Assembly (NCBI GenBank): GCA_963811165.1
Contig: CAWEQH010000010.1
Coordinates: 192,001 to 256,000, forward strand
DNA length: 64,000 nt
Source of the DNA: an uncultured Nitrospiraceae bacterium
Lineage (GTDB): Bacteria > Nitrospirota > Thermodesulfovibrionia > Thermodesulfovibrionales > UBA6898
Reading direction: 5' to 3'
Shown here: positions 33,794 through 39,730 of the stretch, one piece after another
Layout: the number at the start of each line of letters is the position of its first letter
Numbering within the stretch: position 1 is the stretch's first letter
Position numbers and translations under genes: made by a program
The notes under the pieces: generated by a model
Told to the model about the DNA's origin: nothing
Database searches by the model: none
The model's input: only the letters and a program-made list of their open reading frames with translations

Positions 33794-35377
33794 ATGAGCT
33801 ACCGGGAGGCAGATGAAAAAGAAACTCCTCAGGGAGAATGGCGCCCGAGCGTAAACCCGTGGCTCATCACCCTCGCCGTGATGCTCCCCACGTTTATGGA
33901 AGTGCTTGACACCACTATCGTCACGGTGGCTGTCCCGCACATCGCGGGCAGTCTTTCCTCTAGCAACGAAGAGGCTACATGGGTGCTGACAAGCTATTTG
34001 ATCTCTAATGCGGTAATACTTCCGGCAAGCGGATGGCTTGCCCTTTATTTCGGGCGGAAGCGGTTTCTCTTGACCTGTATCGTGCTATTCACCATCTCCT
34101 CGGTCTTCAGCGGGGTAGCCTCGAGCCTTGGGATGTTGATAGCAGCCCGAGTGCTCCAAGGGGTGGGCGGCGGCGCACTTCAGCCAATCTCGCAGGCCAT
34201 CCTGCTTGAGAGCTTCCCGCCTCAAAAACGTGGGATGGCAATGGCGGCGTTCGCCCTAGGGGTGGTCGTCGCACCGATTGTCGGACCTACCCTAGGCGGC
34301 TGGTTAACAGACAATTACTCATGGCGATGGACTTTTTATATAAATATCCCCATTGGGGCGATTGCGATGGTCATGATACAGACATTCATTGAAGACCCTC
34401 CTTATATAAAAGGCCGCAAGCCGAAATACATCGACTGGACCGGTTTCGCACTCATGGCGGTTGCGCTTGCCACCCTTCAAGTGGTCCTCGACAAGGGGCA
34501 GCAGGACAACTGGTTTGAGGCCTCCTGGATAAGATGGTTCACGGCCATAAGTGCGATTGCCCTCGTTGCATTTTTGATCTGGGAACTGCGGGTACGGGAG
34601 CCTATCGTTCACTTGAGGGTGTTCAAAAACCGGAATTTTGCAGTGGGAACATTCCTTATAACCCTGGTGGGATTATCTCTCTACAGCGCGATAACTTTGA
34701 TACCGCTTTTTCTCCAGACCCTTATGGGATACCCGGCATTTAACAGCGGTCTGGCTCTTAGCCCCCGCGGTGTTGGCGCGCTTATAACAACTCCCCTCGT
34801 CGGATATCTTACCGGCAAGGTCGATTTTCGAAAATTGATAGGGCTAGGGTTCTTCCTTGTGGCCATTTCTTTGTGGCTTTTAAGCGACATCAATCTGGAA
34901 ATATCGGTCTGGAACATCGGATTGCCGAATATCTTACAGGGCATTGGGCTTTCGATGTTGTTTATCCCCTTGGCGACAGTCTCAATGGGCACGCTTGAAC
35001 AAAAAGAGATAGGAAACGCAAGCGGGGTTTTCAACCTGATGAGAAACGTGGGCGGAAGCGCCGGTATCTCGCTGATGATAACCTATCTGGCGCGCCACCA
35101 ACAGTCAAACCAGATGGTTCTAGTCTCACGTCTGACTCCGTTGGATTTACCCTACCAGTTCAGGCTCGGAGCCGTTCAGGATTTTTTTATGGCGCGAACG
35201 GGCGTAGCAGATTCGTACAGGAGAGCGCAGCTTTTCATTTACAATTCATTGCAGAAGCAGTCACAACTCCTCGCTTTTATCCAGAGTTTCAGGTTTCTTG
35301 TCATCGTGTGCCTCATCTGCGTAGCCGCTGCTTTCCTATTTAAGAAAGTAGAACGCGCTCGGGTACCGGCCGACTAG
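33794..35377 (+). CDS. DHA2 (EmrB/QacA) family MFS efflux permease
   Basis: FMEVLDTTIV, WVLTSY, GPTLGGW, W.FYINIPIG, many TM segments. Confidence 0.93.
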   Translation: MSYREADEKETPQGEWRPSVNPWLITLAVMLPTFMEVLDTTIVTVAVPHIAGSLSSSNEEATWVLTSYLISNAVILPASGWLALYFGRKRFLLTCIVLFTISSVFSGVASSLGMLIAARVLQGVGGGALQPISQAILLESFPPQKRGMAMAAFALGVVVAPIVGPTLGGWLTDNYSWRWTFYINIPIGAIAMVMIQTFIEDPPYIKGRKPKYIDWTGFALMAVALATLQVVLDKGQQDNWFEASWIRWFTAISAIALVAFLIWELRVREPIVHLRVFKNRNFAVGTFLITLVGLSLYSAITLIPLFLQTLMGYPAFNSGLALSPRGVGALITTPLVGYLTGKVDFRKLIGLGFFLVAISLWLLSDINLEISVWNIGLPNILQGIGLSMLFIPLATVSMGTLEQKEIGNASGVFNLMRNVGGSAGISLMITYLARHQQSNQMVLVSRLTPLDLPYQFRLGAVQDFFMARTGVADSYRRAQLFIYNSLQKQSQLLAFIQSFRFLVIVCLICVAAAFLFKKVERARVPAD

Positions 35378-35933
35378 AAATCCAATCCCTGAATCAACTT
35401 ATTGTGCGCTCCTTATTTTTCAGTGCTACACGTAACCTTGAACGGTAAGATTTCCGCTGACCAAACCTTATGCTGTTGCAAGAAAACGGCAGTGTTGGCT
35501 TCAGGAAGGCATTGAGGGGACCGAGAGTCGTTCAGATCGATTGAACTAACTGATAGGTTTCGCACTGTATTGCGCTGGGAAGAGGGATGCTTAAATGTCA
35601 GACAACTTTTTTCGTTCCTTCCTGTACATCGGAATAGTTTCAGATTGTAAAAACTATTTTATACCATGGTAATTAACGGATTTTGGGAGACAACGAGTTT
35701 CTCCCTTCCTCCCTCCTAAAGTTGGTATTCGTACAGCGTCAGCGGGAAACTGGAATACACCTGCTAATAACCAACAGATCCAAGAAGATGCAACTGAGGA
35801 AGACATCCTATATTGCCTCCTGTCAAGATAAAAAACATCTGGGGAATTTACTTTAAGTATCAATGATCATTTTCCGAGATCTTACAAGAACAATAGTCCG
35901 CCGTACGTCCATCTGGACGATAGTCTTTTTTCC

Positions 35934-36111
35934 TGACGCGCTCTCTCACTTCGAGGGAACCTGATCTCTGATAGTTACGTTTATCCGACGTGTTCCGGAG
36001 TGAGCGAACCGCCCATCATCCCTTATCCAGATTCTCAAGTTCAGTGAGAGGCCCTGTATTGTCTTCACGAGGTCATTCGCCTCAACTTTGTCCCTCGGGC
36101 TCTCTGCGTCA
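35934..36111 (-). ncRNA. Putative IS110 bridge/seek RNA
   Basis: TGACGC/GCGTCA closing stem and two arms; arm 1 internal loop contains GGGACAAAGTT and GAAGACA, matching the two flanks on opposite strands. Confidence 0.75.
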
Positions 36112-37437
36112 AAATCGATTTTTGGAGGCTTCCAGAACAAAAAGGCTTCACAGGAAGCTCTCAGTTAAGTTATTTCGATCCGGCTTATACTGTGGTATCC
36201 TCCACATTGAGATATTTTGGATCAAACAGCTCTTTCTTCTTCATCAAGGTCCATGCGATAACCAGAAGCTTTGCGGCTATCTTTACACGCATCTTCGTGC
36301 CGATTCCCTTTTCTCTCTGCCTACCTCTAAGCTTGTTGGTGTAATAAGTCATGAAATCTTTGTTACTGAATGGAAGCGGTGAGAGCAGCCTGATATAAAG
36401 CATAGCGAAGATCAGCTTTGCCTTGCTTGGAAATAACCGGCGATTGCGCTGTTTGAAGTCTTTCCGCTACGGTTTGCGCAAAGATCGAACCCAGCCATCT
36501 TCAGTACCTGCTTGCCGCTTATAAACCGAAAGGGATCACCTATTGCCCCAAGGACCATTGAAGAGACATCCGGCCCAAAACCGGGGATACTCAACAGGTA
36601 TGGATATTCCGGAAACTGCATGCACAGATCTTCAATCTTACCCTTTACCTCCTTGATCGTCTCTCGCACCTGATGAAGCATCGATACCATCACCTTTGCC
36701 TCAAACAGCACCTCATCGCCTACATGACATCCAATGGACTCAGGGGCTGCCCGCCAGATCGACTGCAGCAGCTTTTGCTGTGCACTATTCGTCCTGCCAG
36801 GGGCAACGCTCCGGCGGAACTCATCGAACTCCATCCCGGCGATCATCGAGGGATCAAGACAGCGCCCCACTACGGCCAGGCTTACCACCGAGCCGAAGTG
36901 TCGATCCATTTCAGGGAAATACTGGGCCAGGAGCTGATTGCGGATGCGCACCTGGAGGCCGTGTTCCTCCTTCGTGAGCCGCCTCTTCAACGCAAGGAGA
37001 TTCCTCAGATCCTGCCTCTTCGGGTCCGGGTACTCATAGTAGAGGAATTTTCCCTGACAGATGAGGTCGGCTACGTTTGCGGAATCCTTGGTGTCGTGTT
37101 TGTCCCATCTGCCATCCAGAAGCGGCCGGTTGTGCTTTACTGCTGCCCCCGCTACCAAAACTACCAGATGCCCGCACTTAATGAGATGCTCTCCCAGAGG
37201 CTTATGGTAATTGGCTGTGGGCTCAAGACCGAAGACCACCTTTGTAAGGTCATGTTGAACCTTAAGCGCTTCTGTCATCGTCAGCAGTTTCTCGAATCCT
37301 TCAATCGTGTTGTCAAAGAACAATCCCTTGTGCAGCGTTTTGCCGGCTGCCGTGCCGAAAAAGGCATTGTGCCTCTCTTTGGCCACGTCGATGCCGACAA
37401 TCAAATACCCCTCGGATCCACGTATCTCGTTCTTGAG

Positions 37438-38762
37438 TGTTGTCAACAAATAGAATTGTCCGGTTATAGAGCACATAAACTGTCCGGTCAGTAGCTATTT
37501 GATATCAGGCAACTTTTTTATTTAGTTTGGAGACCTCCTTCCCCTTGGAATTAAAGGATGCCAGTTTTCTGTGCCCATGGAATATGGCCAGGTTCCGTTT
37601 GGATAGCGATGGACACGGACCTTCACTTTGACGTAGTGAAAGCGGTACTTATCGGCTGGAATCTGAAGGGTCATACCATCGAATTTGACACAGTTGTCAT
37701 TACCGACCGTACGCTCATACTGTTCGCAGAGGATGTCTTGAAGAGGTGTTCCGGCCCAAGGCACGAACATGCTGGCTGACTCCTCTGGGGACACAGCAAA
37801 CTCATCGTTAAAGGCAGGCATATAAACATCACGGATATAGGCATTGGCCTGTTTCATCTCAGTGATGCCGGCAAGTGGCGAGTTCCTTTACAAGCCTCTC
37901 CTGATGGGTACGAAAGGCGCGTTCAGAGCGTCCCCGGGCCTCAGGAGAATAAGCCGGAATCATCTCAATCCCTAACTGCCTCATGGCACGACCAAATTGT
38001 GTCAGATTCTCCTTGTCCACTTTCCCCCCAGCCTCTGGGGTATTCCAGTAGTGGCTGCCGCGATCAGTATAAAGTGAGGCAAATACTCCATGCTTGTCGA
38101 TGACCTCATTGACTCCCTGAAAACTGCTCTGAGTCCCTTCTTCATCGACAAAGAACATCGAGTAATGTTCACTGGTAGCATCATCCATCGTCACGATCAG
38201 ATCCCATAACTTCCCTGGTACCCACTCATGCTTGGAGCCGTCCTGATGCAGCATCATGCCAATATACGGAGCTCGTGGACGCTGTTTCCGGTGAGCTCCT
38301 TTTCGGGAACCCTTGGGCACAAGCCCCTTGCCCTGAAGGGTATTCTTTACCCATGTGTAGCTCCTACTGCCCTCGTGAGCCCGCCGATACCAACTGTAAA
38401 AGTGTTTAACCGTAAATCCCTGATACCGGTGGTTGTATAAATCTGCCAGGGCTATTATCTCATCAACCGGCGCACTGCGGTGTGATATTTGTCCTAAACG
38501 CCTATCTACAAGCCCCTCCATCCCCTGCTCCTCATATCTCACCAGATATCGTCGATACGTGCGATCGCATACTCCAAGCAGCCTTGCCGCCTCCTCCTGC
38601 GTCAATCTCCCCTTTTTCCATCCTTCATATGCTTCCTCAAATCTCATCTTCCGTACCTCCTGTAGTAGTGCTGTCCTTTTCATGAATGGCTCCTCCTTGC
38701 CATCCAATTTTAACCGGACAGTTTATGTGCTACAGATACGGACAGTTTACTTGCTCGCTACA
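37438..38762 (-). mobile_element. IS1202-family (ISNCY) insertion sequence, 1325 bp
   Basis: TGT...ACA ends, shared subterminal AGCACATAAACTGTCCGGT, 16-bp direct repeat GTATCTCGTTCTTGAG at 37422-37437 and 38763-38778. Confidence 0.9.
37505..38683 (-). pseudogene. IS1202/ISNCY DDE transposase with two apparent frameshifts
   Basis: HTH TQEEAARLLG, HQDGS/YTDRGS/GRSER DDE triad; frameshifts near 37877 and 37591. Confidence 0.85.
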
Positions 38763-38820
38763 GTATCTCGTTCTTGAGTTGCCGAAACTCCTGAAGTCTG
38801 ATACCATCTAATTGTTCCAT

Positions 38821-38880
38821 AGAGACCTCCTGTTGATGAATTTTGTTTCTCCATAAACTAATTCTTAACAGGAGGTTTCT
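38821..38880 (-). promoter_or_regulatory. Hairpin covering the IS110 transposase RBS
   Basis: AGAGACCTCCTGTT...AACAGGAGGTTTCT inverted repeat includes the AGGAGG SD of ATG 38820. Confidence 0.7.
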
Positions 38881-39078
38881 ATTTTGGATAGTCTACAAAA
38901 TCAGTTCTCCCTATGATTTAATGGGGAGATCTAACTTCATGTTCTATTCATATATAACTTTGTCCCGACTTGACTTGTCTTAACGTTCATGATAAGCAAT
39001 TAAGTAAGAGACAATGGGATCTCAAAGGAAAAGGAGGCTGGCTCATAAAAAAAAGTTTTATTAAAAAAGGAGGATGAC

Positions 39079-39255
39079 ATGAACTTAGCACTAACAGACA
39101 AAGAAAAAGATATGCTTATGGGAGTACTTAAGGACTATATACCAGAACTTAGGGGTGAGATTGCTTCGGGTGCTAAACACGATTTTAAAGTGGAACTAAA
39201 GGAGGAAGAGGCAGTACTAAAAGGAATATTGGAGAAATTGCAGGCGCTGAAATAA
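39079..39255 (+). CDS. 58-aa hypothetical protein (below ORF-track cutoff)
   Basis: AAGGAGG RBS 5 nt upstream; MNLALTDKEKDMLMGVLKDYIPELRGEIASGAKHDFKVELKEEEAVLKGILEKLQALK. Confidence 0.75.
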   Translation: MNLALTDKEKDMLMGVLKDYIPELRGEIASGAKHDFKVELKEEEAVLKGILEKLQALK

Positions 39256-39730
39256 GTATATTTTCCTCGGACCTGCCCCAAGGTATTTCGACTGCTGCAC
39301 TTAGTGGCTGAAGTCCTCGCCTTCAGCTGTTCCTGATGGTGTTTTATCCTGGTAGTAATCTTGATAGAGTTTCGTCCGCCTGAGAGAATCAAGATGTCGG
39401 TGTTACCAATATCTCAGCTTGCTTTATTCATGGTCTTGTCACAGCGCGTACTCCGGGGCGAAACTAATTTTCTACGTAGTGATGACCATCCTGCGTCAAT
39501 TATCGGAAGAAACTGCCGCCGACCTCCGTTGTGTAAATTCTCAAGACAGTTTCTTTGGAGGTGAAAGAAACAAAAATACTATGTGTATTGCGGGTCGCAA
39601 CAATGCGAATCAGTCTTTCAGTGTACAACTTTATTTCTTGCGCCGATAGACTGAAAAGTGCTACGTTATTGTTAATATTGGGAATGCAGGTGTTCAACTT
39701 TATTCTAGATGGGCAACAAGGAGACATATC

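Follow-up and report, generated by a model that had tools for sequence, protein, structure and literature searches.

IS621 and ISCro4 (IS622) are the closest described systems to the locus reported here, an IS110-family element from an uncultured Nitrospiraceae bacterium that lies within a stretch of 64,000 nucleotides (nt) which we call the window. As far as the published descriptions of those two programmable elements go (PMC11208160, PMC11208158, 10.1101/2025.05.14.653916), our element shares with them a recombinase with a RuvC DEDD domain plus a Tnp domain with a serine, and an RNA of ~178 nt that is ordered 5′ stem-loop, target loop, donor loop. The left guide precedes the right, a 2-nt core is included in the guides, and the left donor guide carries one core base. 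Handshake positions, a short ATA/TAT-type repeat around the donor and a predicted junction promoter are likewise common to them. All coordinates are window positions, and the element and its parts are read on the minus strand. The element spans 35805-38956 with one GT core at each side, and measures ~1.8 kb without a nested insertion sequence (IS). The loops of a predicted RNA in its right end match the insertion site and the element ends and covary with them across relatives, and therefore the system likely works like known programmable bridge recombinases. We consider it very probable that this predicted bridge RNA guides the recombinase to a 14-bp target (8 nt + GT + 4 nt) and to the joined ends, as in IS621.

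The same descriptions mark out the differences. In IS621 the RNA is located in the left end and the core is CT, whereas our element has a GT core, and all loci in which the RNA was located carry it downstream of the gene. The target match is 8+2+4, while wild-type IS621 pairs 7+2+2 and has been designed to 7+2+5. The recombinase has 430 amino acids (aa) rather than 326, with ~100 extra residues between the domains, and its similarity to that of IS621 is only remote (E 6e-21).

A downstream non-coding region, a right end longer than the left and a junction promoter are reported for the IS1111 seekRNA elements ISEc11, ISKpn4 and ISPa11 (PMC11187229), and are found (the promoter as a prediction) in our element too. 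Unlike the IS1111 elements described there, it lacks subterminal repeats of 11-13 bp placed 7 and 3 bp from the ends, its protein has 424-437 aa rather than 330-350 and no GL-P----S/TG motif, its guide order is reversed, with the left (bottom-strand) guide and not the top-strand guide first, and its donor arm is simple, not multi-loop. By size and motif it is assigned to the IS110 group, with which the guide order and the short or absent subterminal repeats agree. Its protein size and 3′ non-coding region resemble those of a 395-455 aa subgroup of IS110-group exceptions (PMC11187229, Fig. 1b). According to Siddiquee et al. (PMC11187229), the non-coding region is downstream in some elements of the IS110 group, and Durrant et al. 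(PMC11208160) write that 'the vast majority' of bridge RNAs are in the left end. Since both 2024 papers allow exceptions in these statements, the downstream arrangement is a noted exception. The locus thus has IS621-type guide logic with the RNA positioned IS1111-style behind a 430-aa recombinase. A literature search found no study of a 430-aa GT-core clade, and the clade may already be covered by one of the 86 models in 10.64898/2026.10.21.760802 or be listed in Durrant's Supplementary Table 5.

Element ends, core and target guides

The original prediction, drawn from this one sequence, reported that an 11-mer of the target loop (36094 to 36084) equals 38966 to 38956 and that a 7-mer (36066 to 36060) equals 35799-35805 of the plus strand. 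Both identities hold. Most of the matched bases are flank as claimed, but the last base of each (38956 and 35805) is element DNA facing a conserved loop position. Some 11-mer is shared with the 3.4-kb region by 350/2000 shuffled RNAs, and the 7-mer occurs 889 times in the genome. The 11-mer match is therefore weak alone and the test had to come from relatives; it is the junction position and the covariation that carry weight.

We collected 161 related loci, giving 162 sequences with the window. The nearest named relatives are from Nitrospirota and the remoter ones mostly from Desulfobacterota. Parsing succeeded for 122 left junctions, 119 target loops and 111 right junctions, the remainder being contig ends, cargo and diverged ends that are not itemised. 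Covariation was tested with one row per distinct guide and 10,000 shuffles. For the left guide (n=43), the matches to the element's own flank at positions -1 to -10 were 43, 37, 33, 35, 29, 38, 23, 27, 12 and 4, against shuffle means of 30, 19, 18, 14, 13, 23, 13, 14, 11 and 3. The guide follows the flank at -1 to -8, with no match at -9 or -10. Its seven-position sum was 238 against a shuffle mean of 129 (maximum 163; reached in 0/10,000), and 154 against 75 when the majority AAC class was removed (n=28). The right guide (n=27) gave 26, 23, 22, 19, 11, 6 and 7 matches at +1 to +7, that is, a match at +1 to +4, a weak one at +5 and nothing further; its four-position sum was 90 against 39 (maximum 60; 0/10,000 shuffles). 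Both loop segments thus track their own flanks, as in a bridge system, which supports the proposed left-guide/right-guide layout. The proposed reprogrammability is borne out in nature, the guides having been reprogrammed across relatives.

The dinucleotide GT forms the core of 120/122 parsed left junctions and 99/111 right junctions; on the right, GT follows one base later in 11 and GA replaces it in 1. The sequence ATAGGATGT terminates 93/111 parsed right ends whichever guide is present, so that GGAT is element DNA. With the GT core this gives a gapless empty site, GGGACAAA-GT-CTTC. Empty sites of relatives carry the core once: eight single-GT sites of the L083/L023 guide type were found in 3 genomes (2 exact, 6 with a T variant), against 0 for a reversed control. 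Reconstructed 16-mers on the GT model were matched with at most one mismatch for 28/69 elements, one of them an artefact (L059), while 16-mers on a TA model were matched for 6/69, approximately the estimated chance level. An open reading frame (ORF) across the empty site gave no discrimination between the core models.

The right end is the longer one (medians 328 and 137 nt). A short TATA/TATA repeat flanks the donor, and a 12/13 inverted repeat is present in the window (35816-35828 and 38863-38875), with its left copy 81 nt inside the element. The original prediction saw no obvious subterminal inverted repeats, which stands for long IS1111-type repeats but overlooks these two.

Some further observations concern targets. 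The window target as a repeated sequence was rejected, since 54 genomes contain the 14-mer 5 times and the reversed control 12 times. An exact vacant copy lies in the element's own genome (contig C4:702261-702274), in or near a gene that looks pilin-like from its sequence, and lengthens to 17 bp with a guide of the type found in run X1 (see below); it may be due to chance, because the 14-mer is not enriched in relatives. In several Nitrospirota members (L004-L007, L023, L083, L084, L085, L003) the targets are short repeated palindromic sequences of which the guides read different places. The left flank of one locus (L059:1336-1352) resembles its own left donor half and not a target, an insertion of half-match type. 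Another (L078:1431-1557) carries, ahead of the full RNA, a further target-loop-like module whose left segment is different.

Donor loop, RNA scaffold and predicted expression signals

The segments around the inner donor stem match the element's joined ends. The left donor guide changes with the donor in 4/87 cases, the variant ones, and never against it; the right donor guide is conserved. In 43/44 distinct guide types, the base that follows the right donor guide is the complement of target position 7 (G-C 37, T-A 5, A-T 1). This is the handshake rule of IS621, by which handshake bases pair with non-cognate DNA; in the target loop the corresponding base is conserved. The layout as a whole fits the IS621 template L7CC / R5CCHH / l7c / rr..rrrcchh.

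The two-loop scaffold is also evident in the alignment of 46 RNAs. Helix positions are paired in 90.8% of cells, with changes on both sides in 115 cells against 42 when shuffled, and slid controls reach 32-45%. The 178-nt region folds as originally described, with a minimum free energy (MFE) of -57.9 kcal/mol (z -1.85; 12/200 shuffles as good). The donor arm of the alignment is a single stem (98% paired). A search with a model of this RNA (R1) found one copy in the genome, where the element itself is single-copy too, and had no match next to four plasmid IS110 genes of ~29% identity (L181-L184). An Rfam scan of 35400-39700 returned one chance match only. More stem-loops, variable among relatives, lie between the RNA core and the right end (35804-35934).

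Reconstructed end joins place TTGACA 17-18 nt ahead of TATATA, with TG in front, in 67/76 cases, and no internal sigma-70 promoter was found before the RNA in 35700-36600. By analogy with IS621 and CazIS110-1, the element would leave by excision or copy-out as a circle joined at GT, and the join would create the TTGACA-17/18-TATATA promoter, from which recombinase and RNA would be transcribed. The RNA might then be cut out of the mRNA or read behind it. A recombinase tetramer would exchange strands at the core GT, and the handshake pairs would favour insertion. The circle junction was not seen in the contigs of 7 runs.

The Shine-Dalgarno sequence of the recombinase is predicted to be paired, with a median unpaired probability of 0.0 over 63 distinct left ends, and folding suggests that this left-end hairpin likely keeps recombinase translation low. 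The CCTCC that forms it belongs to the left copy of the 12/13 repeat and tracks the Shine-Dalgarno sequence, while the right-end copy drifts. We considered whether the right-end copy opens the hairpin in junction-crossing transcripts, and rejected this, as it is predicted in 2/63. A folded 5′ leader that inhibits transposase translation is described for ISPpu9, also of the IS110 family (PMC12288879); unlike in that account, antisense RNAs and a strong native promoter were not identified here. The earlier reading overlooked the donor guides, handshake bases and junction promoter, and because of these the system is closer to IS621 than was first proposed.

Several points weigh against this picture. 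The shuffles ignore kinship, and one row per guide lessens the resulting inflation without removing it. Five of 91 left rows, whose loop has no GT+N ending, were left out, mostly from a nine-locus subgroup (L094, L013, L018, L096, L100, L106, L110, L113, L115) that seems to read its left target shifted by one; on the same scaffold, its apparent left guide consists of seven bases and one core base. In several relatives (e.g. L134, L148, L025, L018) the match to their own flank is poor, as expected for the tolerant or half-match insertion that is described in the literature. The target-loop handshake is conserved only, as is the right donor guide, and the parsing pattern required the handshake A. 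The target-loop stems are invariant and, never varying, give no covariation. RNAalifold missed helices 1, 4 and 6 of the RNA model, and pairing of the outer TGACGC/GCGTCA stem reaches only 70% in the alignment. The predicted -10 box equals the consensus at only 4/6 positions. Finally, the empty allele of the window locus was not found in 8 genomes of the genus or in the contigs of the 7 runs, so that the proposed check for an empty site succeeded for relatives but not for this locus.

Table 1. Features of the element in the window, ordered from left flank to right flank as read on the minus strand
Feature	Position	Strand	Basis
Left target half, 8 nt host DNA	38959..38966	-	covariation confined to -1..-8
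Core GT, left junction	38957..38958	-	GT in 120/122 left junctions
Left end, 136 nt; starts with right-donor half TATATAT, the predicted -10 box of the circle-junction promoter	38821..38956	-	median left end 137 nt
Hairpin, CCTCC 38875-38871 pairing with recombinase Shine-Dalgarno 38831-38826; predicted translational damping	38819..38882	-	repeat search, folding
IS110 DEDD recombinase gene, 430 aa in intact relatives	36185..38820	-	PF01548 + PF02371; 91% identity to intact P0001
16-bp target duplication of nested IS, copy 1	38763..38778	-	repeat
Nested IS1202-like element (ISTde1-type, ISNCY), TGT...ACA, 1325 bp, itself frameshifted	37438..38762	-	NF033594 above cutoff; skipped in relatives' contigs (joint 37421-38763)
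16-bp target duplication of nested IS, copy 2	37422..37437	-	repeat
5′ stem-loop before bridge RNA core; missing in some relatives (e.g. L114, L015)	36125..36160	-	sequence
Predicted bridge RNA core: target loop, then donor loop	35934..36111	-	alignment; model R1, one genome copy
Left target guide, 8 nt + core GT	36085..36094	-	covariation
Right target guide, 4 nt + core; one base short of the length in 117/118 parsed loops	36061..36066	-	covariation
Target-loop handshake position; A would pair with donor T at 35805 after strand exchange	36059..36060	-	invariant in 46/46 aligned RNAs; model as described in PMC11208158
Left donor guide, 7 nt + first core base, imperfect at 5′ side	36017..36024	-	guide/donor pairs GG/GG 83, GT/GT 3, GC/GC 1
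Single inner stem-loop of donor loop	35987..36013	-	98% of cells paired; compensatory changes in 2/4 pairs
Right donor guide, core + 3 nt, one G.T wobble; conserved	35974..35978	-	alignment
Donor-loop handshake position; first base complementary to target position 7	35972..35973	-	43/44 distinct guide types
TTGACA, predicted -35 box of circle-junction promoter	35821..35826	-	17-18 nt to TATATA in 67/76 reconstructed junctions
Left donor half ATAGGAT, right end of element	35805..35811	-	junction parsing
Core GT, right junction	35803..35804	-	junction parsing
Right target half CTTC, host DNA	35799..35802	-	flank match + covariation

The recombinase and competing readings

With a DEDD RuvC domain and a Tnp domain with a catalytic serine, the recombinase is of IS110 type, and its intact relative P0001 scores above the cutoff of NF033542. 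The frame is open in 138/145 full-length relatives. The residues D31, E86, D129, D132 and S338 are invariant or nearly so among relatives, align to the IS621 DEDD and serine, and are still readable in the window gene. An AlphaFold model of P0001 has a mean pLDDT of 65, with values below 50 for the C-terminal domain. Sequence comparison supports the lineage as a distinct clade, whose best plasmid relatives are ~30% identical.

In the window the gene is broken after approximately codon 19 by the nested IS and carries one-base insertions near 36443 and 36367. As described for the ISTde1 subgroup of the IS1202 family (10.1101/2022.12.17.520857), the nested element has TGT ends, 16-17-bp duplications and a helix-turn-helix plus DDE; the subgroup, which the same source reports from Nitrospira, was assigned by duplication length and ends and not by a tree. 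Four further copies (~90% identical) in the genome have duplications of 16-17 bp, and one copy runs into the start of another. All five copies (in the window and on contigs C4 and C10) have CAA directly before the duplication, which suggests a target preference of this element.

Because of the nested IS, the two frameshifts and a right guide segment that is one base short, the window copy of the IS110 element is probably inactive. A copy that is still alive by the same mechanism would need the one-base changes to be assembly errors and the recombinase to restart at an in-frame ATG (37476) in the end of the nested IS. The ORF from 37476 to 36412 does retain all catalytic residues, and a contig set from run X1, with flanks identical to the window, is without the extra base at 36367 and has a right guide of normal length. 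The X1 pieces, however, show 3-4 other letter differences and none of them crosses the junctions, and they may therefore be another copy. The element is single-copy in the genome, and no Shine-Dalgarno sequence is visible before 37476. We find a living copy unlikely.

In an IS1111-type mechanism, a short target-only seekRNA would pick the site and the ends would be read via the 13-bp inverted repeat and not via the second arm. The RNA downstream of the gene, the longer right end and the presence of the 12/13 repeat in the window are all in keeping with this, and target-only RNA is reported to make up 90% of the bound RNA in CazIS110-1. The repeat itself fails as an IS1111-type subterminal repeat and was rejected as such: its left copy sits 77-90 nt inside in 78/81 elements and not at 7 bp, and only this copy keeps to its partner, the Shine-Dalgarno sequence. 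The protein size, the missing GL-P motif and the IS110-type guide order also contradict it, and the second arm covaries with both donor and target. This mechanism is accordingly very improbable.

The geometry of the original prediction fares worse still. It had a TA core, an empty target that includes GGAT, an 11-nt left guide, a 3-nt unmatched gap on the right, a multi-branched second arm and, on these grounds, a mechanistically distinct subfamily, all of which is in keeping with the window copy taken alone and with its MFE fold. Across relatives the core is GT, the GGAT-containing ATAGGATGT closes right ends whatever the guide, and the TA model matches far fewer 16-mers than the GT model. 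The covarying left guide ends at -8, so that it comprises 8 nt plus the core, one base more than IS621, and covariation on the right begins right after GT, which leaves no gap. The two hairpins of the branched arm are peculiar to the MFE fold of the window copy, being 40-73% paired in the alignment against 98% for the single stem. What remains of the distinct subfamily is a separate clade; the features said to distinguish it have mostly dissolved, and we regard that geometry as extremely improbable. Accidental loop-flank matches, to which the shared 11-mers of shuffled RNAs and the common 7-mer would point, are refuted by covariation over dozens of different guides and retain a negligible probability.

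Two features of the neighbourhood lie outside the element. A DHA2/EmrB-type efflux permease gene (33794-35377) adjoins the insertion site, and a 120-140-bp stretch beside the element (35492-35627) has two further occurrences in the genome (79-89%) and is also present in four genomes of the genus.

Possible cargo genes and meaning for the family

A 311-aa DUF3991-Toprim primase-like gene directly follows the recombinase in 11/161 loci (L031:2887-3822, L033, L035, L040:1337-2272, L032, L034, L150:2113-3054, L157/L158/L161, L160). The RNA was located in these loci ~1.1-1.2 kb behind the stop, in 9/11 by the model and in one more by pattern. The elements have normal ends and different flanks and insertion sites, and in three genomes all 6 matches to the primase-like gene are followed by the right end of the element. 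Ten of the loci form one clade with L037 (support 0.85); L040, which is cut, is absent from the tree. Third codon positions of the gene vary most, although less markedly than in the recombinase. With the query used, the gene was not found in 400 other genomes from the phylum of genome G081 or in viral contigs. In a second subgroup, the same position holds an ORF of 60-65 aa whose tail is acidic and which has no Pfam match (L103:1680-1877, L137:2302-2484, L151:1477-1659, L152:1567-1749).

IS621 and CazIS110-1 are reported to release single-stranded circles, and because of this a priming role is plausible. A subclade of an IS621-type system, its RNA moved behind the gene, may have recruited its own primase, which would start second-strand synthesis on the single-stranded copy-out circle and thereby switch on the junction promoter. 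Proteins similar to the DUF3991-Toprim product are plasmid genes, and plasmid-derived IS110 cargo has been published, in a report whose main text does not contain the words primase and toprim. A literature search found no report of a DUF3991-Toprim gene paired with a bridge-RNA element. Passive cargo is more likely than a priming role, and we consider the recruited primase doubtful. If true, this would make it the first accessory enzyme found that is dedicated to a bridge-RNA transposon; the window copy is without the primase gene.

The locus is a real bridge-RNA locus of a known kind with a variant layout. The finding is not surprising in itself, because the mechanism class has been known since 2024, and guide length is unexceptional, as 19% of 32,190 surveyed bridge RNAs are predicted above the IS621 total in the survey of 10.64898/2026.10.21.760802. 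Its value lies in a well-resolved natural series with dozens of reprogrammed guides. The intact relatives, among them L011 (92% identical to P0001), have a natural 14-bp target match and are candidates for recombinase screens, and the primase-bearing subclade allows a direct test of single-stranded circle completion. The guide series shows that the arrangement of guides and the handshake rule of IS621 also apply to a remote clade that has a 430-aa recombinase, a GT core and its RNA at the opposite side of the gene. The two 2024 papers disagree on whether RNA position or protein lineage determines the mechanism, and this result bears on that question.

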